A DNA stretch of 64,000 nt from a virus. Numbering within the stretch: position 1 is the first letter of the stretch; each line of letters begins with the position of its first letter. The translations under genes and the position numbers were made by a program. Location: the IMG/VR virus record IMGVR_UViG_3300025655_000017. The stretch is one strand, 5' to 3'. The notes beneath the pieces were generated by a model. It saw nothing but the letters and a program-made list of their open reading frames with translations, was not told the DNA's origin and ran no database searches. Positions 25,838 to 54,873 of this stretch are shown here, in pieces.

Positions 25838-25894
25838 AAAAACCACCATCTAAATTAATAGATGGTGGATCATGAAATATATTAAATATAAAAA

Positions 25895-27721
25895 TTATGT
25901 CATAAGGTCAATAATTGTATTTTTTTGCAACGTTTCATAGCGCAAATCAATATCGACCTTTTCTTCATTGATCAATTCACTTTCATCATAAATGATGTTG
26001 GCTCCTGCATCAATCAAAACTTGTTTCATAGAAATTGGTTTTGACCACTGAGCAAACAGTGCATTTCGTGCTTGCTCAGATTTTCCACCCGGCATACTTA
26101 CTGGGATATTACCAAAGTTTGCATCAAGAATAATAAAAGAAATTCCATCGTTTTCAGGCAAAAACAAACCTACGATTGTACCTTTTCCTTTTGTTTCAGT
26201 TCGCACTTCAAACAAAAGATCATTAGGATCAAACATGTGATTCTTTTTAACTGAAGAAGCTCGGCCTACTACAATCTTATAGCTGCTTTTTTTATCACCT
26301 GTGAAAACATTCAACATGGCTAATGTTGGTTCACTTAAACCTTTACCTACGTGCAGTAGTTCAGTTGCTCCATTTGGAGCATCGGTAATATCACCACTGT
26401 AAGTCAAACTGCCACTATTATAAGTGGAATTCCAACCAACTTTCTTACCAAGACCAATTGCACTTAAGTCTAAATCTGTTCTACCATTTTCGGAGTTTTC
26501 CCAATAAACACCAGCAGCCATGTTACCATCTACTGTAATTTTTGTTCCAGTCGGAACATTTCCAATAAACATTTTTTCTGTACTAGGTAAAGCATAATCA
26601 ATATTTGTTGGATAAAGAATATTCTTACCTTTTACATTCAATGATTCAATAAATGAATAGTAAACCTGCATAAAAGAACGTTCGTAGTGTTCTTTTGTAT
26701 TATTGCCCTTAGTCACGTAACTTTTTCCATTACGGATGCGGTAAAACATATCTTGTGGGTTATTCATGCGTGTATTTAAAGCGTACAAAAGACGGATTTT
26801 CCGAAAATTATTAGCTTTTTCCAAAGCTTTAGTCAGCTCTTCACCATGAAACTCATTAAGTGCAGTAACACTATTCAAAAAGTCAATAGACATAGGAACA
26901 TGGTGTTCTTTAGACAATTTAGACAACTTATTGATAATGCTAACATTATTTTTATTAGCTTTTTTAAATGCTAGGAATAATGGTTTATACCGATTGAAAA
27001 TCCCAGCTAACTTAATAAGATTATACTGCTTAATGTATTGTTCTACATCAATTTTCGAAGTAAGAATAGCTGCAATAATTGCAGGGTTCTTAATAAGAGT
27101 TGTGCTATCAGTTGCCTTGTAAACCAAATATCGAACGAATTCCATCGGATTCGATGGAAATACATTTTGGTCATCCATTACTCGAATAGCAGCTTCTTTA
27201 TTTTTGATATTATCTACACTTGCAAACTTATAATCCAAAGCATTCAAGATGTCAAAAACATCCTTAATTGTTTGTTCTTTCAGTGCAATTCCTGATTCAA
27301 ATAAAGACACACATAGTTGCACTAGTTCGTCTTTTGAAACTCCACAGATCACACGAATAGGAACCTTGCTTAGTTCAGGTACTTCTAAAATTTCATTAGG
27401 AAGGTAAATATAGCCATTTTGAATACCCAGAGCATCCATGCCATAAGTACTAAAATAATGCAATAACTGATGAACCAACAGTTCTTCTTCTGTGGAATCC
27501 ATAACAGTTGACCATGACTTGTGGAAAGTGGCATTAAGCTGATTTCCGTTCAACATTTCTTGATGGTAATATTCCATAATTTCTTTAGCACAATGAAGTG
27601 CAGAAGGATCAATAATATAACCAAAAGGTAAAGTCTGTGAAACAATAGTTTCACTCAAACTAGAAGATGTAGTTTTATCATTAAGTACTACATTAAAAAG
27701 ATTCAAAGTTGTGTAAGTCAT
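25895..27721 (-). CDS. ROT/TROVE-like helical repeat + C-terminal TerD-domain protein
   Basis: TFHKSW, QLLHYFSTYG; TerD-like RTDLDLSA...GWN...YSGDITDAPNGATE; no RING cysteines. Confidence 0.7.
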   Translation of the reverse strand: MTYTTLNLFNVVLNDKTTSSSLSETIVSQTLPFGYIIDPSALHCAKEIMEYYHQEMLNGNQLNATFHKSWSTVMDSTEEELLVHQLLHYFSTYGMDALGIQNGYIYLPNEILEVPELSKVPIRVICGVSKDELVQLCVSLFESGIALKEQTIKDVFDILNALDYKFASVDNIKNKEAAIRVMDDQNVFPSNPMEFVRYLVYKATDSTTLIKNPAIIAAILTSKIDVEQYIKQYNLIKLAGIFNRYKPLFLAFKKANKNNVSIINKLSKLSKEHHVPMSIDFLNSVTALNEFHGEELTKALEKANNFRKIRLLYALNTRMNNPQDMFYRIRNGKSYVTKGNNTKEHYERSFMQVYYSFIESLNVKGKNILYPTNIDYALPSTEKMFIGNVPTGTKITVDGNMAAGVYWENSENGRTDLDLSAIGLGKKVGWNSTYNSGSLTYSGDITDAPNGATELLHVGKGLSEPTLAMLNVFTGDKKSSYKIVVGRASSVKKNHMFDPNDLLFEVRTETKGKGTIVGLFLPENDGISFIILDANFGNIPVSMPGGKSEQARNALFAQWSKPISMKQVLIDAGANIIYDESELINEEKVDIDLRYETLQKNTIIDLMT

Positions 27722-27747: not shown

Positions 27748-27802
27748 AAGAACGAATAGTATTTTTTTAGAAATAAATTTTTTAGGAACTATTTTTGTCC
27801 TT
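27748..27802 (-). ncRNA. Bulged-stem RNA motif, copy 1 (Y-RNA-like candidate)
   Basis: AAGGAC-AAA-AAUAGU-UCCUA...AU-ACUAUU-C-GUUCUU. Confidence 0.7.
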
Positions 27803-27815
27803 TGTGTATTTTAAA

Positions 27816-27865
27816 AAAGCGAACAGTATGTATCCAAGTTTTATATAGGAACTGTTTATGCCTTT
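27816..27865 (-). ncRNA. Bulged-stem RNA motif, copy 2
   Basis: AAAGGC-AUA-AACAGU-UCCUA...AU-ACUGUU-C-GCUUU; compensatory change versus copy 1. Confidence 0.7.
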
Positions 27866-27868
27866 GTG

Positions 27869-27982
27869 TGATGGGGGATGGATTCGAACCACCGACCTAG
27901 AGATTATATTTTAAAGGAAGTTTTTTTGATAAATTCGAAAACTATTTGAGTTCTCCTGCTCTACCAACTGAGCTACCCCATC
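27869..27982 (-). ncRNA. tRNA-like RNA with ~48-nt insert in place of the anticodon loop
   Basis: Acceptor GAUGGGG/CCCCAUC, D arm GCUC-AGUUGGUA-GAGC, T arm GGUGG-UUCGAAU-CCAUC, anticodon stem GGAGA/UCUCU enclosing a long loop. Confidence 0.8.
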
Positions 27983-27994
27983 ATTTTTTAAAAA

Positions 27995-28750
27995 ACTCCT
28001 GATTGATCAGAGTTGAGTGATAACATTTTTATCCGTTTCCAGATATTACAAACATCAAGTTAATTGATAGTTATCATAATCAATGAAATTACGGTTTTCA
28101 TCAACCTACTACTAAATGAGTTATAAAGTACTTTTCTCGTTCACCATCCTTGCAAGGATTCACAATCTGCCGACTGTTAGGTTAGAACGAAAATTTTCCC
28201 TCAGCTTCAAACTTGCGAGTCATCGACTGCCACTATATTTCAAATGGATAAGATTATTTTCCTCATTTTAGTGCTACTCACTTTCGCTTTTTATTTTCTG
28301 TTAAATAGAAAGTTTTTTTGATAAATTCACTGTGAAGGAAGCGGAGTAGCTTTCCACCTTGCTTGCTTTTGACAAGTTTAGGTCAAACTCCCTTCTGCTT
28401 TCGGCTGGCAACCTAATAACTTCTATGTTTTGTATTCACGGTATTTCTACCAACAAACTTTAAACATAAATTGTATATGCAATTTTTTTCGCCAAAAAAA
28501 TCTCACATATACTCATTGTTTTCCTTATTGCATTTCTGCTCAACAAACCGTCGAAATTATCATAAACGATTCGTTATTAAATCTTCATTGTCCTTATCTT
28601 TCAATACGAACAAATACCCAATTTAATAATTCTCACAATGGCTTTCATATCAACTGTGCATAACACAGCGCAAAATTTAACTCTTGCTTTCATCAAGTTG
28701 CCCTGACTTATTGTTTATTGCTCATAGAGCAAATGGAAAAGAAGCCCCCC
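27995..28750 (-). ncRNA. Large ornate ncRNA (ROOL/GOLLD-class candidate)
   Basis: No credible ORF; many GNRA-capped hairpins on the minus strand (AUCUG-GAAA-CGGAU, GGUA-GAAA-UACC, CAGG-GCAA-CUUG, GCA-GAAA-UGC); tandem promoters upstream. Confidence 0.7.
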
Positions 28751-28787
28751 CATTAATTCTTAATTAGTTCTTTAACTAATTGATGTC

Positions 28788-28946
28788 ACAAAGATAAAAA
28801 ACTTTTTTTAATAATGCAAGCTTTTTATCAGAAAAATAAAAAATATTTTTTCACCTTTTATTTTTCTTTTTAGTTGACAGTACAAATATAATAACTTTTT
28901 TTTAATAACGCAAGCTTTTCACTAGAAAAATAAAAAATATTTTTCC
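28788..28946 (-). promoter_or_regulatory. Tandem duplicated Bacteroidota-type promoters
   Basis: Two ~65-bp direct repeats, each with TTG..N..TA(T/C)nTTTG. Confidence 0.7.
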
Positions 28947-29334
28947 GTTAAATATTCTTGTATCAACAAATCTAATCCTTCAAATACCCCTACTAGATTT
29001 TCAATCTGTTTTTCCTCATCAACGTTGGGCATTAAGTTGCATTGCAACATAATTTCACAATATCGACGCTGGTTATTGGTCAAACTAAAGTTGCCAACAG
29101 TATTTAAAAACTTGCAAAATCAATATACAAATCACTCATGTTTTTTTGTTTAAAGGTAACCTTCATTTTCTTCATAATCATCGTCATCGTTTCGTGGATT
29201 TCTTCTCCAACTCTGATTTCTACGAAATGTTTCCTCAATGTCTGTTTCTTCATCATTTGTAAAATCATTGTCATAAAATATATGATGAAGCAACCCTAGA
29301 AGAAAAAATATGGCCAACATAATATAAATATAAT

Positions 29335-29889
29335 TCATAAATTATATGGTTTTAACATGTTATCAATTTCTGCAAATTCATCTAATAGTAAAAGTTCATA
29401 TGGTGTTAGTGAAGCCGCATATTTTTCTTGTTTGCTTAGTTTCATCCCACCTTTTTCACCCAATAATCCTTTTTGATATGATTTGTGAACCATGTGATTA
29501 GCTACAACATTTTTAACCACACTTACATTTGCCCCATTTTCTACAATCCATTTTTGAATTTCAGGATTATCTTCTATGAAACGCATTGCTTGATATGGAT
29601 GATCAGGGTTACTATGGTATGTGCAACTTTGGCCATTGGCCATAACAATGTTTTTTGTTCCTCCACTTGACTTAACTGGTTGTAATCCCTTACAAATATC
29701 ATGAAGAGCGGCTACCATAATTAAGTCGTTATTAGCATTCGCCAAAGCCCTACCTACTGTAATTTCAATATGTCCACCTAAAATACCCTCTGGGTGATAG
29801 TCTAAACGCTCAGGTGAGCCATAAAATGTGGTAAGCATAACCTGATAAACTTCAGGAGCCTTTGCTAAAAAAATCGTTATATCTTCCAT
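29335..29889 (-). CDS. HD-domain phosphohydrolase
   Basis: YHPEG...H...ALHDICK...H...HM...D. Confidence 0.75.
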   Translation of the reverse strand: MEDITIFLAKAPEVYQVMLTTFYGSPERLDYHPEGILGGHIEITVGRALANANNDLIMVAALHDICKGLQPVKSSGGTKNIVMANGQSCTYHSNPDHPYQAMRFIEDNPEIQKWIVENGANVSVVKNVVANHMVHKSYQKGLLGEKGGMKLSKQEKYAASLTPYELLLLDEFAEIDNMLKPYNL

Positions 29890-30403
29890 CTTTTTCTAAG
29901 ATTTTAATGTTTTTTGAAAAATCAGGGTTAGCTTCAATAAAATCGTGCAAAGAAACTAACAATGTTATAAATTCCCGGTATTGTTTCAAGATTATTGTCT
30001 CACCAACAATTCTATCTCTTTTTGCGTCTCTGTCAATACAAAGATAAGGATCAAACGATGCACCAGTGATGATAACATCTACCATATTTCTACCTCTCAA
30101 TGCTTTTTCCAAAAAGTGCCATGATAAATTAGTATTATCATCAATTAAAAAATCATTTGATAATTCAATTGCTTTCAAAAGGTGAGAAATTAAATCCTCC
30201 CGATCTGCACGAAATTCTTTGTGTTCTTCGCTATACCATTTTTCATTATGATTAGGCACAAATGCTTCTCGCAACGCATCTCGGTTACAACGTATATATT
30301 TTGGATCGTTAATGACCAATTGCTCAGTAAGAGTAGACTTACCTGACGCACTGATACCAACAATATAAGTAATATTTTTCATCATTTTTTTTTTAGATGA
30401 CAA
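29852..30403 (-). CDS. Polynucleotide kinase (PseT-like P-loop domain)
   Basis: GISASGKST, NRDALR, DNTNL, RDAKR. Confidence 0.8.
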   Translation of the reverse strand: MSSKKKMMKNITYIVGISASGKSTLTEQLVINDPKYIRCNRDALREAFVPNHNEKWYSEEHKEFRADREDLISHLLKAIELSNDFLIDDNTNLSWHFLEKALRGRNMVDVIITGASFDPYLCIDRDAKRDRIVGETIILKQYREFITLLVSLHDFIEANPDFSKNIKILEKDGRYNDFFSKGS

Positions 30404-30758
30404 AGATAGTAATTTTTTTCATACAATCCTAATTTATACAAGAATTTCATGCTGAATATTTTCCATGATAAAACTCTTACAAGAATTATTAGTTTTAAAG
30501 AAATCGTTCTCATTATTGAAAACCATTTCTTTTCCATTAACTTCAATAATAATTTTAGGATCATCACCTTTTTTCACTCCAAAAAAAATAAAAAGAGTAA
30601 TAACTTCCCAAGGGTTAATATTAAAGGCTAAATTTAACCAATTAAATTGTTTTAATTTAGGATCAGGTGAAAAAATTTCTAGTTTTTTCACCCAGTGTCA
30701 AGTTTGGTTATTTTTTCTTGTTTCTTCCAAAGAGAAACTTTCTTTGATTCTGGCTTGC

Positions 30759-30794
<36 letters not shown>

Positions 30795-31374
30795 ATGTGA
30801 ATGTAAAGATTCCAAAAAACTGTCAATGAAATTAATGATTACTTCAACATCACGCTCCATTTTGTTACTGACAGATGCCGTAGAACTAATAACATAAATA
30901 AAATTAATGTTATTCTGTGAATCAAAACTATCTAAACCTTCAAAAGTAATCTTAATAGTATTCACTTGTCCATAACAGTTCTTATCTTCTTTGATGAAGA
31001 AATTTCCATAAGCCTTAAACCCTAAAGAAGTCATGTAATCAGTAATGACTAATTCTTCAAAACTTCCAGTTCTTAAAAGTGGATTATAATAAGAAGAGTC
31101 AAATTTATAAGAATCCATTTTTCCTCGGATTTGATGACAAAAAATAGATAATGTTCTCGTCCATTGTTGAAAACCTTTTACTCGAAAAGAATTATTTTTT
31201 TTCTCAGCAGTAAAAAGATATTTGTGCTCAAATCTAGTACAACTTTGAGGGTTTTTATCATAGAAATGATATTGACCATTAGTTTTTTCAATTTTGTAAA
31301 TACCACTAAGGGTTTTTAAACTAATCATTGTAAGATGTTTGGTTATCTAATGATGTAAAGATACAATAAAAAAA

Positions 31375-31653
31375 TTACTTTAACAAATTTAAATGATAAA
31401 TAATCTCTCTATCATTAACTTCCAAGGCACCTAACTTAAAAGCCATTGTTTTATTTGTTTTGCAAATATCATAATGTGGCTTACCGTTTTTATTTTGAAA
31501 ATGTTTTCGATCAATTCCTAATTGATCTGCCATTTCATGTAGTTCATCTATGGTACTTGCAATCATATGCGACATTTTCATGCGCCCTAACTTGTACTCT
31601 CTTGTTCCTACATATACCATTGTTACAAAATAGTTTTGTTTAGTTGTTCCCAA
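31375..31653 (-). CDS. DUF4031-like protein
   Basis: SHMIA...ELHEMA..LG.....FQ....PHYD. Confidence 0.7.
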   Translation of the reverse strand: MGTTKQNYFVTMVYVGTREYKLGRMKMSHMIASTIDELHEMADQLGIDRKHFQNKNGKPHYDICKTNKTMAFKLGALEVNDREIIYHLNLLK

Positions 31654-31705
31654 TTAACTAGAAATTCACTTTCACTATAGGGGAGTAATTCTTCCATTTT
31701 ATTAT

Positions 31706-32035
31706 TTAAAATATGTTATTAAAATTAGTTAATAAGCCCATAATGTTCTCACTACCAACTGGATTAGCCGAATGAACAAAAAATCTTGGAGAAGGGATAT
31801 TATTATCCAAGCATTGTTCTACCAACCACTTTGCACAATCATATCCAGTTTCCCCCTGACCTAAATCATGATCAAAAGAAATAAGATCGGGTGGGGGATT
31901 ATTTTGCATCCAAGATACAAATTCATAATAATTTTTCGCCCATACAATCTTGTATCCTTGTGGTACTTTTCCCTCACTATTAATATGCGGATTTCTCATA
32001 TCGTCAAGCCACAGGAGAATTTTAAACGTATTCAT
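31706..32035 (-). CDS. Cyclic-phosphate-processing receiver domain protein
   Basis: LWLDDMR.P, ISFDHDLG, TGYDCAKWL, VHSANPVG. Confidence 0.8.
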   Translation of the reverse strand: MNTFKILLWLDDMRNPHINSEGKVPQGYKIVWAKNYYEFVSWMQNNPPPDLISFDHDLGQGETGYDCAKWLVEQCLDNNIPSPRFFVHSANPVGSENIMGLLTNFNNIF

Positions 32036-32152
32036 CTTGATATAGATTTAAATATTTATTAATGATTTTAACAAAGATATGAAATTTCACTAAAATATAA
32101 ATTTATTTCAGTGAAATTTTTTAATGGATATGATTAACCGCTAGTTTTGTTG

Positions 32153-32223
32153 TTACCCATAAGGGACTTGAACCCCTATTATCTCTTTAGCGGGGGTCTA
32201 TTGACCAATTATAGTAATGGGCG
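32153..32223 (-). tRNA. Degenerate tRNA (anticodon arm unpaired)
   Basis: Intact D arm CUAU/AUAG and T arm AGGGG-UUCAAGU-CCCUU; 15-nt weak anticodon arm. Confidence 0.5.
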
Positions 32224-32328
32224 AAGCATCAACAAAAAAAAATACCTATCTGCAAATAAGTAAATCTTCATATTAACAGTATCAAAAAACATAGTAAATC
32301 GTTACAATGTTTCTAATTCAAGCTATTT

Positions 32329-32630
32329 TTAATGGCTTTTTAAAACCAATAACTTTGGGTTCACTGCTAAACCCTCTATCCCGTCAGCGTAAGCTTTCGG
32401 GATTTCTTTTTGCAATATATTATACGCTCCATTCAAGTCAGCATTTATAATTACCCCCTTACCACTCCTGAAAAGACCACGTTTAATCCTCCTACCAATA
32501 TAAAATTCACGCTTTTTTGGGTACTCACCATCTAAAAATGAACATTTACTTGTATAGCTTTCCTCCCTAATAATTAAATTTATTCCCTCTAGCTTTAATT
32601 TATACGATAAAATATCTATAGCCCTACTGT
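32329..32630 (-). pseudogene. tnpB: TnpB C-terminal remnant with right-end (omegaRNA) region
   Basis: Translates REESYTSKCSFLD...INADLNGAYNILQK...DGIEG. Confidence 0.85.
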
Positions 32631-32661
32631 TATTACACTTTCTGTTGCATCTAATATTTTT

Positions 32662-32952
32662 TTAAAAAATGTAGAAATTTAATTCAACTCTACCACTTTT
32701 CATTTTGTATAATTGTACTTGTAATTGTTCTTTTAAAGGTTTATTATTTTTTGTTATTTGAAATGAAATTCTTTGAGTTTCTTCTATTGGGACAATAAAA
32801 TTTAATGCTTCATTAAATTCTCTTTCATTGATTTCATACCCCTTAGCTGTTATTTGTTCAAAAACATAATTTAGTGCCTCTTTTTCAGAGTTAAAATATA
32901 TTTCTGCATGTTCTTTTTCATATAAAAAATTCTCTGATAATAATATTGTCAT
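32662..32952 (-). CDS. Putative late/head protein
   Basis: Late motif at 32962-32969; N-terminal ILLSE. Confidence 0.45.
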   Translation of the reverse strand: MTILLSENFLYEKEHAEIYFNSEKEALNYVFEQITAKGYEINEREFNEALNFIVPIEETQRISFQITKNNKPLKEQLQVQLYKMKSGRVELNFYIF

Positions 32953-33035
32953 AATTTTTTATATAAATATAACAAAGTATTTCTTTTTGTTTATCAAAGG
33001 ATTGTTATTTTTGTTCATAGATTTTAGGTATTTAA

Positions 33036-33106
33036 AAAACTATATAGGATTTGAACCTATATTACTTTTCTCAGCGAAAAGCGTCCTCCCGTTAAACGAA
33101 TAGCTT
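33036..33106 (-). tRNA. tRNA-Glu-like body with atypical anticodon loop CGCUGAG
   Basis: Cloverleaf paralogous to 33125..33196; G at position 33. Confidence 0.6.
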
Positions 33107-33124
33107 TTTAACATTTTTGATTTG

Positions 33125-33196
33125 AAAACTATGTGGGATTCAAACCCGCGTTTCCTCTTCGAATGAGAAGCGTCCTGTCCACTAGACGAATAGCTC
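33125..33196 (-). tRNA. tRNA-Glu(UUC), slightly degenerate
   Basis: Cloverleaf; loop CAUUCGA; T-loop UUUGAAU. Confidence 0.7.
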
Positions 33197-33275
33197 TCCA
33201 TTAACTTATTTGCCTTAGTTGCAACAGAACAGAATAATTAATACTTTTTTAAATTGCAATTTTAAAAAAATTTCG

Positions 33276-33401
33276 TAAGAAATAAAGGACTTGAACCTTT
33301 GACCTTTTCTAGTAGCACAACAAAACATACTTGTTAATTTAATAACTGCACATGGCGTATGTTGTGCGTTCGAAACGCTCTACTAACTGAGCTAATCTCT
33401 T
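33276..33401 (-). ncRNA. tRNA-like RNA with long hairpin replacing the anticodon arm
   Basis: Acceptor AAGAGAU/AUUUCUU, canonical D and T arms; extension GCACAAC/GUUGUGC and AUAC/GUAU. Confidence 0.8.
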
Positions 33402-33412
33402 ATAAAAAATTG

Positions 33413-33492
33413 TACTGATGGAGGGATTTGAACCCCCGTTTTCAACGACCGCTACAGTTCTGGAAGGTATAAGCTTCCGCTGGTACATCAGC
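33413..33492 (-). tRNA. Non-canonical tRNA-like RNA with UAU anticodon hairpin and no normal D arm
   Basis: Acceptor GCUGAUG/CAUCAGU; GGAAG-CUUAUAC-CUUCC close to the acceptor; T arm GGGGG-UUCAAAU-CCCUC. Confidence 0.7.
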
Positions 33493-33500
33493 ATAAACAC

Positions 33501-33581
33501 CACCCTAACGTCTCTGGTGAATATGTAAGAAGATTACGACTAATTAATTGGCTAAGACTTATAATTAATTAGTACTTCTTA
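33501..33581. ncRNA. Repeated structured motif, copy 1
   Basis: CACCCTAACGTYTCTGGT..GAAGATTRCGAC-hairpin-GTACTTC shared with 33777..33834. Confidence 0.55.
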
Positions 33582-33776
33582 TTTTGTTATTGAAAAACTA
33601 TATTTTTCTTTGTGCTTTCGCCTACTAGATGATAACCGCACCACCTATGTATTTTAAAAAAAAGTGTATTTTACAACGCTCGTTACGTTAACTCTTTGGC
33701 TACTTTTTTCTTCGATGTAAAGATACAAATAACTTATGACTTTTCAAAATTTATTTTCATCTTTTGTAAAAAAAAT

Positions 33777-33834
33777 CACCCTAACGTTTCTGGTAATTAT
33801 GCCGGAAGATTGCGACCTATAAAGGTACTTCTGG
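33777..33834. ncRNA. Repeated structured motif, copy 2
   Basis: Same core with compensatory outer stem and shorter inner hairpin. Confidence 0.55.
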
Positions 33835-34354
33835 TTTTTTTGAGTGAGAGGCTTTACCTCTCTTTAATTTCGATGTCAAACTCACCGATCATATTTTTTG
33901 TAAAGATAAAAAAGTTATTTCATAAAACCTAATATTTTAGAAAACTTTTTTTAGTTCTTCATTAATATTATTCATTAGTTCATCTAACTCGGTTCTATGA
34001 TTCTCTCGATAGTAATCAATGCTATTTGTCTTTGATCTGTATTTTCCACCAAACCCAAAGAACCCTTGAAACCTCCATTCTTCACACATTAGATCACTAT
34101 AAACATGTTCATGAACAAATAAGTTTCGTAAATTGTTACTTGCACCTCCCATAGTAACAAGTATATCGTAAACTTGTTCAGCATTTTCTCTAGTAAACAT
34201 AAAAAATATTTATTTTGAATAATGTTTGTTAAAAACTTCTTTTGTTAATCCATAATCAACAAAGATAACAGAATCACTACCCTCTCGTTTGACGATTCCC
34301 CACTTAATTATTTCACCTCATGTAAAACAATCTTATCTGGATCAGTTGATTTAG

Positions 34355-34426
34355 TGAGAGTAGAAAGATTCGAACTTTCATCGTGGGTTTAGAAAACCCA
34401 TGCACTATCCCTTGTGCTATACTCCC
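34355..34426 (-). tRNA. tRNA-Arg(UCU)
   Basis: Canonical cloverleaf; stem UGGGU/ACCCA, loop UUUCUAA. Confidence 0.9.
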
Positions 34427-34573
34427 ATATTGGTTATAACGTTACCAACGCAGCAAATCTACAAGTAGATTTTTACTGGAATGCTGCATCTATCACTTTT
34501 AATCTGGCTTTCATCCATATCCAGAAGTGGCTTTCATTCTACGTCCCTGAAAGCATTAGGACAAACTTTATTG

Positions 34574-34647
34574 CGGGAACAGAAGGACTCGAACCTTCGA
34601 CCTGATGATTAACAGTCATCTGCTCTAACCAACTGAGCTATGTTCCC
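34574..34647 (-). tRNA. tRNA-Asn(GUU)
   Basis: Canonical cloverleaf; loop CUGUUAA. Confidence 0.95.
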
Positions 34648-34660
34648 ATCTTTAAAAATA

Positions 34661-34933
34661 AATCAATTGTGCTGTTACGCCAAAGACTCTAAGGGTCGTA
34701 ATGATCTGCTAAATTATCATTTAAAGAACTTATGATAATTAGCCTAAAGCTTTGCCTTTAGTTGAATACATCATTACACTGTACTTGTCTTTCCCCCGTT
34801 AGTAGCTTTTGATGGATTTCTTTTTGGCTCCATTTAAGACTTTTCATTAGGTATTGCCTATGCCTGTATTAGCACCTAACACTAACTCGTCACTCATTAT
34901 CAGATGGCTGCTCTTAAGCCTACTGCTTTGATT
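34661..34933 (-). ncRNA. 23S rRNA GTPase-associated-centre (H43-H44) mimic RNA with internal insert
   Basis: 5' GUAGGCUUAAGAGCAGCCAUC..UAAUGAGU and 3' GCGUAACAGCAC, closed by AAUCAA/UUGAUU. Confidence 0.75.
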
Positions 34934-35099
34934 TTTTATCTTAATGTAATTAAACTTTTTTAATTACTATTTTTAAAAATTAAACAATGACAGTTTTGAA
35001 CTGCTAAATAGCTTTTTTAATTAGCCATAGTTTTCATAATAACATGAAAAATTTATCTAGGGTAAAAAATACATGTATTATAACTTCCCATTGTTTAAA

Positions 35100-35152
35100 A
35101 AGACGAACGGTATTTTTCGTTTGGTTTTTTTTATAGGAACCGTTTTTGTCTT
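35100..35152 (-). ncRNA. Bulged-stem RNA motif, copy 3
   Basis: AAGAC-AAA-AACGGU-UCCUA...AU-ACCGUU-C-GUCUU, just downstream of the TATCTTTG promoter at ~35166-35173. Confidence 0.7.
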
Positions 35153-35614
35153 ATTTTCTTAGTAACAAAGATAAAAATAAATATCTTATAAAACAAATTT
35201 TTTATCAATTATAAAAAAAAAAATTCTCCACTAATATATTACCTCTTGAGCAAGATAACAACGGACTGTTATCACCACCTTTAAAGAAGCTTAAGATTAA
35301 AGTACTAATGAAATCCCCAACATATCTTTTTTAGTATCAGATTTTATATACCATTGCTCAGAAGTAATTATTCCTGCAATACCTAAACCGCTCAATTCTT
35401 TTGTTCTATCGACAATAGTCTCACTGTTTATTTTTATCTGTGGATATGTACCAGTGTAAATTGTGGAAGGCATTAAAAATGCTTGCCCTTCAATTATCGT
35501 TGGTAAATCTTCCCCTAACATATCATCAGGAATAACAGCAACTAATATTGTTTTACCTTCTGCTGTTTTTTGTGCAATAAACTTAAAATATATCGTTTTC
35601 ATATTTTTTTAGTT

Positions 35615-35731
35615 AAAAAAGTGATTTGTTAATTAAACAAAGGTAATAAAAAAACTTGAAAAAAGAAATTTATTTTACAACGCTTTTTACGTTAACTCTT
35701 TGGTTATTTCTTTTGACATATCAAAGATACT
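35615..35731 (-). repeat. ~115-bp promoter-bearing direct repeat (copy B)
   Basis: Near-identical to 36941..37057; core also at 33667..33726. Confidence 0.85.
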
Positions 35732-36393: not shown

Positions 36394-36940
36394 TCATTAC
36401 TTTCATTTCTGTGGCTAGTTCAGCCACCATTGGGATACCACAAGTTGTGAAAAAAACAATTTCCCCATTTTCGTAAGATGCTACTTTTACTGCTTGATTT
36501 GCAGTATTCACGCTTTTTTTATCTCTGTATCTTACTGTTTTACCTAAAATATATAGGTTTTCATCTAACTTAAGAAAAAGATTAAAAATAGGGATGATTT
36601 GTTCTAAAAAAAAATTTTCATCTTCTTTATGCCTTTTTTGTGCTTCTTCTTGTAGCTTCAAATAAATAAGTTCTTTTGCCTTGAATTCATTTTTACGTTC
36701 TTTCACAGCTTCTTCAAACAAATCTTTATCATGAATGTATTTAGCATCAATTTTTAAAATAGTATCTCCATAATATCCATCCCGGTCAGTATTTTCAATG
36801 CAATATTTGCCATCTTCAATAAAAGATTCATTGATTGAATCGACAGAAGGGCTAAAGTCACAAAAATGTTTTACTACTCTATTAATATGTGAATAAACAG
36901 GATAAAGAATTAATGTTTTCATGTTATTGTTGGTTTAATT

Positions 36941-37057
36941 AAAAAAGCGATTTGTTAGTGAATCAAAGGTAAGAAAAAAACTTGAAAAAAGAAATTTATT
37001 TTACAACGCTTTTAACGTTAACTCTTTGGTTAGTTCTTTTGACATATCAAAGATACT
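36941..37057 (-). repeat. ~115-bp promoter-bearing direct repeat (copy C)
   Basis: Near-identical to 35615..35731. Confidence 0.85.
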
Positions 37058-39818: not shown

Positions 39819-40472
39819 TTAATATTTGAATTCTTTTATATTATTACTGTTTAACAATAATTGAAATAATTCATTTCTCACAGGTTTAATATAATATGAT
39901 TCTATCTCCCCGGCATTAAACATATTATTCAATTTTTCTCTTAGTTCTTTTTCCTTTCCTTTATCTACCTCATTACCTTTTAGAGTTTTTATGTGAATTA
40001 ATTCAGGTAAACGGTTATTAATTAATTCTTCAGCTATATAAAGACATCTATTAACATGAAAGTTTTTATTTTTATCTTTCATATCTCTTTTGGCAAAACC
40101 CAAAAATGCCTTGATAACTTTGTATGTTCTACAATAATCTAACTTATTTTTTTCTGCTATCATATCAGTAAATAATAATATTTCTGTATTTATAGCAGAA
40201 TCACCACTTGTCTGATTACGCCAAAACTGATCAATTGTGGTAAAAATATATTGTGTGTTATCTTCTACATCATCATACTGAAACATATGATTATTAGGGT
40301 AATAATTTATCTCTAACCAAGCACTAGGAGGAGCATAAATACATAAAACATCAGTATCTGAATGTTCGCCAACAGTGCCGTACATATTTGAACCAAAAAT
40401 ATATTGCTCATAAACACGATGATTCAAATATGTAAATGCTTCATTATCTATTTTAATATTCATTATATCCAA
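39819..40472 (-). CDS. Pol-beta nucleotidyltransferase
   Basis: FGSNMYG...SDTD. Confidence 0.75.
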   Translation of the reverse strand: MDIMNIKIDNEAFTYLNHRVYEQYIFGSNMYGTVGEHSDTDVLCIYAPPSAWLEINYYPNNHMFQYDDVEDNTQYIFTTIDQFWRNQTSGDSAINTEILLFTDMIAEKNKLDYCRTYKVIKAFLGFAKRDMKDKNKNFHVNRCLYIAEELINNRLPELIHIKTLKGNEVDKGKEKELREKLNNMFNAGEIESYYIKPVRNELFQLLLNSNNIKEFKY

Positions 40473-41407
40473 TTTTTAAAATTAGTTTCATTAAATGAAA
40501 AGGGAGTTTCAACAGATTCCCACTTTGTTCTGATAATAGGATTGATAATATCTTCCCACTCTAATGTTTGTTCATTAAATAAGGCATAGTTACCAGTATC
40601 TGGAAAACGCTCAATAACATTATTTCCATTTTTGTTTTTAGCTTCAATGGAAATACCATTAATGTATTTGTTCTTAATAATAAACGTTCCTCTCTTTTTT
40701 GAAAAATGTAAATCGTTCCAATTTAATCCTTTTTCGTGAATCATATCCTGCATCATAGATTGATTCTTATTCTTTAATTCATCAGGACTATACAATGATT
40801 GTGCCATCATAGCAATACTGTTTTTTACAGCATCTTTTTGACGGGCTAAAAAATAATTAGCTACCTCTTCTTTAGGGTAATTAGCTACTCTTGAATCAAA
40901 ATCTGCCAATGGCTCATCATTAAATGACTGAGTTAACAATTGAAATGATCTCAATTTATCTTCTATATCTCTTTTTGCTATCTCACAATCAGTATTAAAT
41001 TCATTATAAAATTGTTCTCTTAGACCTAAAAAAACATTACGTCTAACTCGCAATTGATTGAACTTTCCAGATGCCATACTTGCACTAACAGAAGTCATTT
41101 TTTGAACATTATAATCAAACCAAGCTTCCGAAGCTAATTTATCATAGTCTGTTATAAGAATAGAAATTTCATCGCTTTGTACATATGCACATTTAGCCCC
41201 CTGAATTTTACTACAAAGAGATATTGCAGTATCTGCCATATCTTCAATTAAACCCTCATCAAAAGGTTTAATTAACTTATTAGTATACGTGTGAAAAGCT
41301 TTACCATCAAGTCGCATGATAACAGGAACTCGTTTAGTTAAAAACGTTTTACTCCTATTCTCATAGTTCTTTTTCATTCTGGTCATAATAGCACAATTCT
41401 TACTCAT
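40463..41407 (-). CDS. thg1: tRNA-His guanylyltransferase Thg1-like (3'-5' polymerase)
   Basis: RMK.YE, RLDGKAFH, YVQSDEISIL, FDSR, RQ.D...N, KRG. Confidence 0.92.
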   Translation of the reverse strand: MSKNCAIMTRMKKNYENRSKTFLTKRVPVIMRLDGKAFHTYTNKLIKPFDEGLIEDMADTAISLCSKIQGAKCAYVQSDEISILITDYDKLASEAWFDYNVQKMTSVSASMASGKFNQLRVRRNVFLGLREQFYNEFNTDCEIAKRDIEDKLRSFQLLTQSFNDEPLADFDSRVANYPKEEVANYFLARQKDAVKNSIAMMAQSLYSPDELKNKNQSMMQDMIHEKGLNWNDLHFSKKRGTFIIKNKYINGISIEAKNKNGNNVIERFPDTGNYALFNEQTLEWEDIINPIIRTKWESVETPFSFNETNFKNWI

Positions 41408-52229: not shown

Positions 52230-54201
52230 ATAAAAAACTTTGTATATAAATAAGCTTCAACAAACTTAATCTTCAAAGTGATGGAGATCATATTTAGCTA
52301 CAATCTCATCAGCATTTTCTACCTTAAAAGTGAATTTTGTTTTCATTAGATTTTAATTTTAGTACGTTTGAGGAAAAACCATTGGGGAGTTCCAGCCCAC
52401 TCAGCATCATTGCAGTAGACACAATTCTCCCATAAGTTAATTCCCCTTACATTCATATCTAACCACCCTATCTCTTCTCCTATATTCACAGAGATAGACA
52501 ATCCATTAGTTAGAAAAGGAATAAGTTGATTTATATTTGTTACTTCCATAATTTTATTCATTTTTTATTTAAACAAAGATATTAATAATAATTGATTTAT
52601 GCGACATTTATATGAATTAAATAAAATTATTTCACCTTATTAAAAAAATCGTTAAAAAATACTGTGAATCCAGATAAAACGTTTTTAAAATAGCAAAAGA
52701 ACAAACTTTTACCGTTTAATTAGTAATGGGTAGTTTGTTCTTTCAATGTTAATTTAATCAGTATGTTTATTCCACAAATCATCAAAATCATAGGTATGTC
52801 TAATGACTTTTAATTCCAATTTATGTTCCCAACAAAAGGTGCTCAAGTGATAAGCTTCACTTTCAAAATAAACTGGTTTACCATCTTTATTTTGAAGGCC
52901 ACTGATTTGTATAGTATCACTACAATCTTCACAGCTTGCATAAACTTTTTTGCCAAAGCTATCTTTTACCAGATAAATTCTCGTTAATACTTCCATAATT
53001 TTTTGTTTTTATAATGTGTTTTTAGTTTTCCAACTATCAGGAGATTGATACTCTCCCTCTAAAAAAGATTCTCATTTTTTAACCATCTGATTGCTTCACT
53101 AAAAGATGGAGCTGAATAAATATATTCATCATATATATTGTGGTTCATCTTTTCACCTTTTTTTGTTTTCTTTAAACCACTAACCGAAAAGGGTAAATCA
53201 GATGCTTGCCAATAATATTCACATGGTTTTGAATATCCTTTTTCTTTCAATCTTTTAGCTAATTCTAAATCAACAAGTTGCTGTTGTCCCATGATTAAAA
53301 ATTTTAATGGATTAATTAATATTTGAATTATGCAAGTTTAATTTAAACCTAACATAATCATTACCCTATCAAAATCAGTTTCAGTTTCTATGAATCCATC
53401 GAAGAAAGTATTCCACTCACATAAACTTGGTACATACATTTGTATTTTTATTTCTATACCTTGCTCATTTTGTTGATATATAATTATTTCAAATGCCCCA
53501 TACCCCTTTTTAGCTAAGTTCTTTTTCAAATTAATTAGCGTTCCACACCCCAACTCATCTTTTTTTCTAGTAGACCACATTCCGTAATATGAACCCCTCC
53601 CATGATAGGTGAAACGATCATCAGCATTTATTTTTTCTCTTATCTTAGTAATAAGATTTTCCATACTCTTAATAGTTTGTTCTTACATAATTTAAAATAT
53701 CAACTACACTAGCTAAATTATGTTCGTTATTTTTTAACAAGCGTTCCCAATATTTGTGATTGCTCTGATTTTCATATCTATTTCTTGCATCTCCAACCAC
53801 CATTCAGGTTCTGTATTACTCCAAGGAACCTCTCTATCAATAATATCAACCTGAGTTAAAATATATTTTTTAAGATTTTCCCATTTCTCAAATGGATTAT
53901 TACCCTCTATGTTTTCCATTGTTTGTTTTTTAGTATTCATTTTGTTATTTTTTTTATTTAAAAATTCCTTTATATCTTTATCACTGTGAATTATACCTAA
54001 AGGATAATCATTTGTTTGAATTTTTTCTTCTGCTTTATTGAACAGGCAAGTTAACAATTCATCATAATTTACATTAGGATTTTTTTTAGAAAAATCATTT
54101 GCTCGTTCAATGGTTATATTAAGCATTTCTTTTAATTGTTCTTCAGACATAATTTTATTTATTTATTTTAACAAAGATATAGATAAAAATTGATTTCTGT
54201 A

Positions 54202-54873
54202 CTAATATAACACTTTACAATTAAAAAGTTCACTATTAATAGTTGTAAGCTCATTATTGTATAAATCTAACATTTTACATTTTGGAAGTAGGGTATTAAA
54301 AGTAGTAAGTTTATTATTGCTTAAATCTAGTTTTTCACAATTAGGTAATTCAGCATTAAAAATAGTTAGTTTATTATTGTATAAATCTAACATTTTACAT
54401 TTTGGAAGTAGATAATTAAAGGTAGTAAGCTTATTATTATATAAATCTAATTCTTCACAATTAGGTAATTCAGCATTAAAAATAGTAAGCTTATTATTGT
54501 CTAAATCTAATCTCTCACAATTTAGAAGTTGGGCGTTAAAACTTGTAAGTTTATTATGGCTTAAATCTAATTTTTTACAATTTGGCAATTCAGTATTAAA
54601 AGTAGTAAGTTTATTATGGCTCAAATATAGTTTTTCACAATTTGGCAATTCAGCATTAAAAATAGTAAGCTTATTATAACGCAAATCTAATTCTTCACAG
54701 TTAGGCAGTACAGCATTAAAAGTTTTAAGCTTATTATCACATATATTTAATTTTTTACAATTAGGAAGCTCACTAATAAAAATTTCAACTATTTTTTTAT
54801 TAGTGATGATAATTTCCACTTGATCTAAAATTTCAGTCTTTTTATTATTTAGAGTAATATAATAATTCTTCAT
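54202..54873 (-). CDS. Leucine-rich-repeat protein (20-aa repeats)
   Basis: About nine LPNCExLDLxxNKLTxFNAE units (60-bp DNA repeats). Confidence 0.9.
   Translation of the reverse strand: MKNYYITLNNKKTEILDQVEIIITNKKIVEIFISELPNCKKLNICDNKLKTFNAVLPNCEELDLRYNKLTIFNAELPNCEKLYLSHNKLTTFNTELPNCKKLDLSHNKLTSFNAQLLNCERLDLDNNKLTIFNAELPNCEELDLYNNKLTTFNYLLPKCKMLDLYNNKLTIFNAELPNCEKLDLSNNKLTTFNTLLPKCKMLDLYNNELTTINSELFNCKVLY

Follow-up and report, generated by a model that had tools for sequence, protein, structure and literature searches.

The closest described systems to the locus reported here are those of Ro60/Rsr and the Y RNAs, known from the rsr-yrlBA-rtcBA operon of Salmonella and from phages that encode Rsr and YrlA (PMC4201824, PMC7790460), in which a large protein gene, RNA-associated in Ro60, is flanked by its own small structured RNAs. 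We have analyzed a 64,000-nucleotide stretch of viral DNA (IMG/VR record IMGVR_UViG_3300025655_000017; referred to here as the window), a phage-like contig of 28% G+C with nearly all of its genes on the minus strand, where the gene for a 608-residue (608-aa) protein is similarly accompanied by small structured RNAs: bulged hairpins that resemble YrlB in being plain bulged stems, and an RNA that, like YrlA, carries a tRNA-like domain. An earlier note on this DNA had proposed that three hairpins, two of them beside this gene and one several kilobases away, are copies of a single small RNA motif. We find that the motif is a genuine structured RNA of the minus strand, linked to the 608-aa gene, and that it is probably the protein-binding 'handle' of Y-RNA-like small RNAs and probably also an autoregulatory leader. 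The elements concerned are the following.

27748 to 27802, minus strand: handle hairpin copy 1 (pattern, fold and covariance model, 63.4 bits).
27815 to 27865, minus strand: handle hairpin copy 2 (pattern, fold and covariance model, 50.3 bits).
35100 to 35152, minus strand: handle hairpin copy 3 (pattern, fold and covariance model, 69.7 bits).
27869 to 27982, minus strand: tRNA-like RNA, or chimera (Rfam tRNA, 54.5 bits with a 48-nucleotide insert).
25895 to 27721, minus strand: gene of the candidate partner protein, 608 aa (open reading frame).

Folding of the minus strand gives the same anatomy at all three sites (27802-27748, 27865-27815 and 35152-35100). Each copy has an outer stem of 5-6 base pairs (bp), an inner stem of 6 bp and a loop of about 27 nucleotides (nt) beginning UCCUA, with a 3-nt A-rich bulge (AAA, AUA and AAA in copies 1, 2 and 3) opposite a single C. 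The inner stems differ from one another only by compensatory changes, and a G-U pair in the outer stem of copy 1, which becomes A-C if read on the plus strand, supports the minus strand. Minus-strand folding energies range from -6.5 to -10.6 kcal/mol (z -1.5 to -2.6), and the plus strand gives z values of -0.1 to -1.3 and no consistent fold. An exact pattern finds just these three copies in the 64 kb, with 0 expected from 100 shuffles, and no fourth copy is found in the window by the covariance model run with filters off, the next best match scoring 16 bits compared with 50-70 for the three. Copy 1 ends 27 nt upstream of the ATG of the 608-aa gene, and copy 2 begins 3 nt past the tRNA-like RNA.

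A scan of viral contigs with a degenerate DNA pattern returned 108 loci, which are mostly chance matches; about 15 of them are clear homologs, whose outer stem and bulge lie outside the demands of the pattern. A covariance model (R1) built from 16 phage homologs finds, independently of the pattern, additional copies next to the seeds, in many cases as tandem arrays (seven in locus L062, four in L121, and three each in L011, L070 and L077), and the covariance-model search suggested in the earlier note, run with these family copies, reveals a large family in both phages and bacteria. Among 36 family copies 96.2% of cells pair and compensatory changes occur at all 12 pairs; the first A of the bulge, the UCCUA and the bulged C are invariant in all 36, the apical region varies freely, and an extra hairpin is present in some copies. 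On the sense strand G-U and U-G combinations outnumber A-C and C-A by 7 to 1. In 107 distinct copies from viral loci chosen by protein alone 94.7% of cells pair and 347 double changes are counted; the covariation score reaches 0.683 versus 0.242 when shuffled (0 of 500); sliding the registers in this set reduces pairing to 36-50%. The hairpins match no family in Rfam at either gathering or permissive thresholds.

Because a short T-run follows copies 2 and 3, it might be supposed that the hairpins are intrinsic terminators or attenuators of tRNA and noncoding RNA (ncRNA) operons, but many homologs have no T-run, the stems are weak and the ~27-nt loops long, and a terminator scan does not call the hairpins. 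Invariant loop and bulge nucleotides, together with arrays that directly precede a co-oriented gene (in the window with no promoter of its own evident), make this explanation extremely doubtful.

The RNA family is coupled to a protein family. The seven-copy array in L062 directly precedes a 635-aa open reading frame (ORF) sharing 38% identity (E 9e-132) with the 608-aa ORF of the window; four of the five whole phage contigs found via the RNA encode a full-length homolog (E 1e-127 to 1e-245), with copies abutting the homolog gene; and the gene is adjacent in 12 of the 15 RNA-found loci. For the reverse test, 80 viral loci from a profile-based protein scan and 80 species-genome loci were chosen by protein only, blind to the RNA. 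The viral loci contain 122 motif matches, all on the gene strand, and 73 of the 75 that have an upstream flank are motif-positive. The 80 species genomes also contain 122 matches, of which 121 share the strand of the gene and lie no more than ~360 nt upstream of it; 70 of these loci are positive, and the ten misses are short-loop variants by eye. This bacterial set includes Chryseobacterium, Flavobacterium, Pedobacter, Aquimarina, Saprospiraceae, Chitinophagales, Roseivirga and Calditrichia, and overall the system reaches at least 284 species genomes and at least 127 viral contigs, its protein falling into about 1400 clusters at 50% identity. In Bacteroidota and their phages genomic coupling of the RNA to the protein is near-obligate, often with tRNA genes or the RNA ligase gene rtcB (RtcB) alongside. 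Other homologs, in contexts L115/L116 (4442-5000) and L111/L112 (5810-6000), are 43% and 48% identical to the partner protein, and in L115 about 560 nt of other non-coding sequence lies before the gene, with TnpB-like genes flanking.

The strand bias also bears on the possibility that the motif acts as DNA, being a palindrome bound by a protein, a site of recombination or a mobile inverted repeat. Its form, an inverted repeat dispersed through AT-rich phage DNA, is compatible with such an origin, but compensatory changes keep the pairing, G-U pairs occur only on the gene strand, 243 of the 244 matches in loci chosen by the protein run in the direction of the gene, and the motif lies on the tRNA-gene strand in every tRNA-bearing locus checked. 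We consider a DNA-level repeat barely credible.

In the window, as in almost all of the bacterial and phage loci, the last copy ends 15-30 nt short of the start codon, and no promoter is evident between the window hairpins and the 608-aa ORF, as would be expected of a purely cis-acting 5' UTR element, an operator or riboregulator working by feedback or as a ligand switch with no small RNA acting in trans. But copies also occur between tRNA genes with no nearby protein homolog (L032, L083 and L066) and just after the gene (L070, L122/L280, L268 and L238), L062 has its array of seven, and the handle is permuted into a tRNA-like scaffold (see below). In the window itself, copy 3 has a promoter of its own and is separated from the protein gene by 7.4 kb.

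35166 to 35197, minus strand: Bacteroidota-type promoter of copy 3 (TTTG, 20 nt, TAnnTTTG; pattern match).

The expected start site of this promoter is about 7 nt ahead of copy 3. Copy 3 is the first structure of the transcript, upstream of a ~270-nt ncRNA and a tRNA cluster, and heads a separate ncRNA/tRNA unit; the earlier note had made it the first element of an operon. That note had also argued that the motif is not merely a 5' UTR switch, and the relatives between tRNA genes, just downstream of the gene and grafted into the tRNA-like RNA agree with this. An exclusively cis-acting leader is in our view unlikely. A cis-regulatory role of the start-codon copy in addition to another function is likely.

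There are precedents for such an additional role. Autogenous operators mimic the substrate, as in E. coli thrS, which mimics the anticodon arm of tRNA-Thr, and in ribosomal-protein leaders. The arrangement here is similar in that, just upstream of the start codon of the protein's own gene, there is a hairpin that looks like the 'anticodon arm' of the tRNA-like partner RNA, but it differs from thrS-type operators in having multiple copies, some distant, some downstream and some in tRNA arrays.

The chimera at 27869-27982 has normal acceptor, D and T arms, but a 48-nt insert (about 27951-27904) replaces the anticodon loop; it lacks the 7-nt anticodon loop of a tRNA, and ARAGORN does not call it. 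The insert is the handle in circularly permuted form: its 3' half, a small loop capping the outer stem, and then its 5' half, ending UCCUU. In Chryseobacterium rhizosphaerae (L109) a like chimera follows RtcB and precedes the protein gene, further permuted chimeras are present in the phage-like L113 and L117 and in Lewinella (L134), and a chimera precedes the gene in 6 of 15 further bacterial loci. Alignment of four chimeras (the window, L109, L113 and L117) shows nearly invariant D and T arms and a handle helix that covaries. Because the permuted chimeras keep the handle while the apex differs, the motif divides into a conserved core, consisting of the helix, the AWA/C loop and two single-stranded flanks, and an interchangeable apex. 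Two other tRNA-like RNAs were encountered. One, on the bacterial chromosome of L119 (4893-4976), is a reduced form that precedes the homolog and has an encoded CCA end and the 5' half of the handle only. The other, in the window at 33276-33401 on the minus strand (Rfam tRNA, 47 bits), has an anticodon-arm insert of ~55 nt; as a candidate handle this insert was ruled out, being instead a long plain hairpin.

The 608-aa protein has no family in Pfam, PHROG, NCBIfam, PADLOC or PDB sequence searches, and in the ESM atlas it falls among uncharacterised viral clusters only. Its homologs form more than 2200 clusters at 90% identity, and a profile of its N-terminal domain finds 1381 clusters at 50% identity, nearly all of them proteins of ~600 aa. 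An AlphaFold model (pLDDT 82.7) shows that residues ~397-555 adopt a TerD fold, with Z 10.4 to 2qz7 (root-mean-square deviation 3.1, 142 residues aligned) and Z 9.7 to 2kxt (3.0, 140 aligned); Foldseek assigns the C-terminal domain to the TerD structures 2kxt and 3ibz with probability 1.0. The Pfam TerD profile does not match the protein. The N-terminal 395 residues are helical and match nothing convincing; their best fold-search hit, with either the whole model or the N-domain alone, has Z 7.1 and covers a helical hairpin only. The earlier note had labeled the gene ROT-TerD. Its TerD half stands at the level of the fold, but ROT (TROVE) was found by none of Pfam, a PDB profile search, two fold searches and a whole-library profile search. 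The TROVE model does find other genes in two of five of the same genomes, never the partner gene, and because a genuine TROVE gene sits elsewhere in those two the ROT label is unsupported. Fold searches with the whole model and with the N-domain alone likewise gave no Ro60 match to a TROVE ring with a von Willebrand factor A (vWA) domain, the C-domain having the TerD fold and not vWA.

These results bear on whether the hairpins are true Y RNAs of the YrlA/YrlB family, with a highly diverged Ro60 as their protein. The helix of the handle, with its single bulged C and 3-nt bulge, resembles the stem of vertebrate Y RNAs. The operon logic, with RtcB and a tRNA-like RNA, would fit such an identity, and both systems have a link to RtcB and a divergent regulator and occur in bacteria and phages. 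But the 5' strand of the Y-RNA terminal stem has a conserved GNCGAA(N)G or GGUCCGA (PMC4201824) that is absent from the sense strand of the handle, which instead has its AWA/C loop and UCCUA. Rfam Y_RNA and YrlA gave no match at E up to 5-10 with the window copies and one Chryseobacterium locus, nor did any other described family in the Rfam check that the earlier note had suggested. One RNA of the locus, the chimera and its homologs, does contain a tRNA-like domain, but its topology is unlike that of YrlA: the acceptor stem carries the RNA ends and the anticodon loop is replaced by the handle, whereas in YrlA the ends form the Ro-binding stem. The arrays of up to seven handle copies, a WYL-type regulator in place of RtcR, and a partner protein with a helical domain and a TerD fold, with no TROVE/vWA signal in Pfam, no Ro60 in the fold searches and genuine TROVE genes elsewhere in two of five genomes, are further differences. 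By its defining features the handle is thus not a Y RNA, save for the tRNA-like partner and the RtcB linkage, and a divergent Ro60 system proper seems very improbable. An antisense GRCGAA, considered as an Rsr-binding motif, is an artefact of the first search pattern and of a covarying AA/UU stem subset.

In Chryseobacterium the gene order is a divergent WYL/WCX regulator, HopJ, RtcB, the chimera, two hairpins, the protein gene and often RlaP. RtcB is adjacent in 52 of the 80 genome loci (all of the Chryseobacterium, plus Flavobacterium salilacus and Aquimarina), the divergent WYL regulator is present in 48 and RlaP in 30, and RtcB is adjacent in phage L062 as well. In phages the homolog gene is usually inside tRNA arrays, and in L032 and L083 a copy of the motif fills the gap between tRNA-Ser and tRNA-Gly, so that tRNA end-processing would release it as a discrete RNA.

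Small stable RNAs are known from phage tRNA clusters, as in the species 1 and 2 RNAs of T4. GOLLD and ROOL RNAs also lie near phage tRNAs (PMC5737381). The handle resembles these RNAs in that it is co-transcribed with phage tRNAs and would be released by tRNA processing, but it has no sequence or structure relationship to them. Its presence in phage tRNA arrays and its replacement of an anticodon loop could also point to a protein-independent decoy or sponge that titrates a host factor, such as an anticodon nuclease or a tRNA-modifying or -processing enzyme, with the protein only co-regulated; a decoy role proposed for YrlA offers a precedent (PMC7790460). But near-obligate coupling to one protein family, in phages and in at least 284 bacterial species, would be difficult to account for unless RNA and protein were direct partners, and we regard a decoy acting alone as quite improbable.

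The layout parallels that of rsr-yrlBA-rtcBA (PMC4201824, PMC7790460), and we infer a Ro60-like particle in which the 608-aa protein would bind the handle and the RNAs would act in trans, as the earlier note had argued. The handle would comprise the 6-bp helix, the AWA/C internal loop, an outer stem of at least 2-3 bp, and the single-stranded flanks UCCUA(U) and (A)AAU atop the helix, with the apex free to be a plain loop, an extra hairpin or, when permuted, a whole tRNA body. The RNAs would be co-transcribed with tRNAs, the protein gene or both, and where tRNA genes flank them tRNA end-processing may release hairpins of ~55-70 nt, the chimera being ~115 nt. Plain hairpins would take the role of YrlB and the chimera that of YrlA, and the particle may act in tRNA or RNA damage control or as an uncleavable tRNA decoy, protecting translation in phages and being used together with RtcB in bacteria. 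The start-codon copy (15-30 nt ahead of it) probably serves in addition as an operator through which the protein exerts feedback control.

Several points weigh against this proposal. For most copies, the near-constant placement right before the start codon is explained equally well by a leader that acts only in cis. No RNA-binding fold can be recognised in the N-domain, and calcium binding is what TerD domains are known for. In the homolog contexts L111/L112 and L115/L116 there is no recognisable motif upstream, and the RtcB linkage is dominated by one genus and thus reflects few independent events. The region 27748-27982 is uncovered in metatranscriptome contigs, which is uninformative either way since such short RNAs escape contigs.

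The module has no entry in Rfam and the protein has none in Pfam, and no publication describing this RNA-protein system was found in a literature search that left one RNA-repair review outside its reach. The balance is about even on whether the helical and TerD protein and its handle RNAs represent a new class of ribonucleoprotein, engaged in tRNA-damage surveillance, repair or decoy in Bacteroidota (with RtcB) and in their large phages (within tRNA arrays), that converged independently on the design of Ro60 and the Y RNAs. If the partnership holds, it would be a second, independently evolved system of the Ro60/Y-RNA kind, and would provide a function for a large family of 'hypothetical' proteins and for unexplained non-tRNA elements of phage tRNA arrays. 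A short hairpin and one protein would then make a simple test bed in culturable Chryseobacterium and Flavobacterium, with bearing on tRNA mimics in RNA repair and in tRNA-cleavage conflicts of cells and phages.

The transcription unit that contains the 608-aa gene is bounded by two further features.

27996 to 28744, minus strand: large ornate RNA, GOLLD-like in its 3' half, that heads the transcription unit (Rfam GOLLD and RNA contigs).
25843 to 25868, minus strand: intrinsic terminator after the protein gene, closing the unit (terminator scan).

The order of the unit is one or more promoters at ~28790-28900, the GOLLD-like RNA of ~740 nt, the chimera, copy 2, copy 1, the 608-aa ORF and the terminator at 25868-25843; a hairpin with a T-run lies near 27995-28010, between the GOLLD-like RNA and the chimera. 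The large RNA matches Rfam GOLLD with 72 bits (E 3e-18), which is below the gathering score of 150. It was assembled from 28006 to 28744 in four freshwater metatranscriptomes from four studies at a depth of 41-224, compared with 2-7 for the ORF, and adapters in the RNA contigs place its 5' end at 28742-28744. An abundant GOLLD-like RNA thus heads the unit, and to our knowledge the function of the GOLLD class is not yet established. This RNA is context and lies outside the handle motif; neither a GOLLD nor a ROOL RNA was found near the protein gene in seven other loci. An exact 19-nt repeat is common to the chimera insert (27918-27936) and the GOLLD-like RNA (28310-28328).

At the copy 3 unit, one RNA-library contig (depth ~8) joins 34655 back to 35205 on the minus strand, a span of 551 nt that takes in copy 3 as well as the ~270-nt ncRNA (34661-34933). 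The joint might be explained by an RNA that is circular or permuted, or else by a related strain having a tandem duplication.

A blastn search of the region against deposited phages gave 0 matches. The window contains several tRNA genes and many Bacteroidota-type promoters (TTTG/TAnnTTTG), the pattern having 16 matches compared with 7.2 expected. It also encodes RNA-handling proteins in the style of an end-healing set (29335-30403 and 39819-41407, minus strand): an HD-domain protein, an AAA_33 kinase, a nucleotidyltransferase with a weak RlaP-like match, and a Thg1-like tRNA-His guanylyltransferase. Other repeats are present. In the ncRNA/tRNA region a 54-nt element occurs three times with 83-85% identity (33656-33709, 35660-35713 and 36986-37039) and a 139-nt repeat twice with 89% identity (35593-35731 and 36919-37057), and at 54073-54843 there are nine tandem 60-nt units, 61-79% identical and largely within the ORF at 54202-54873.

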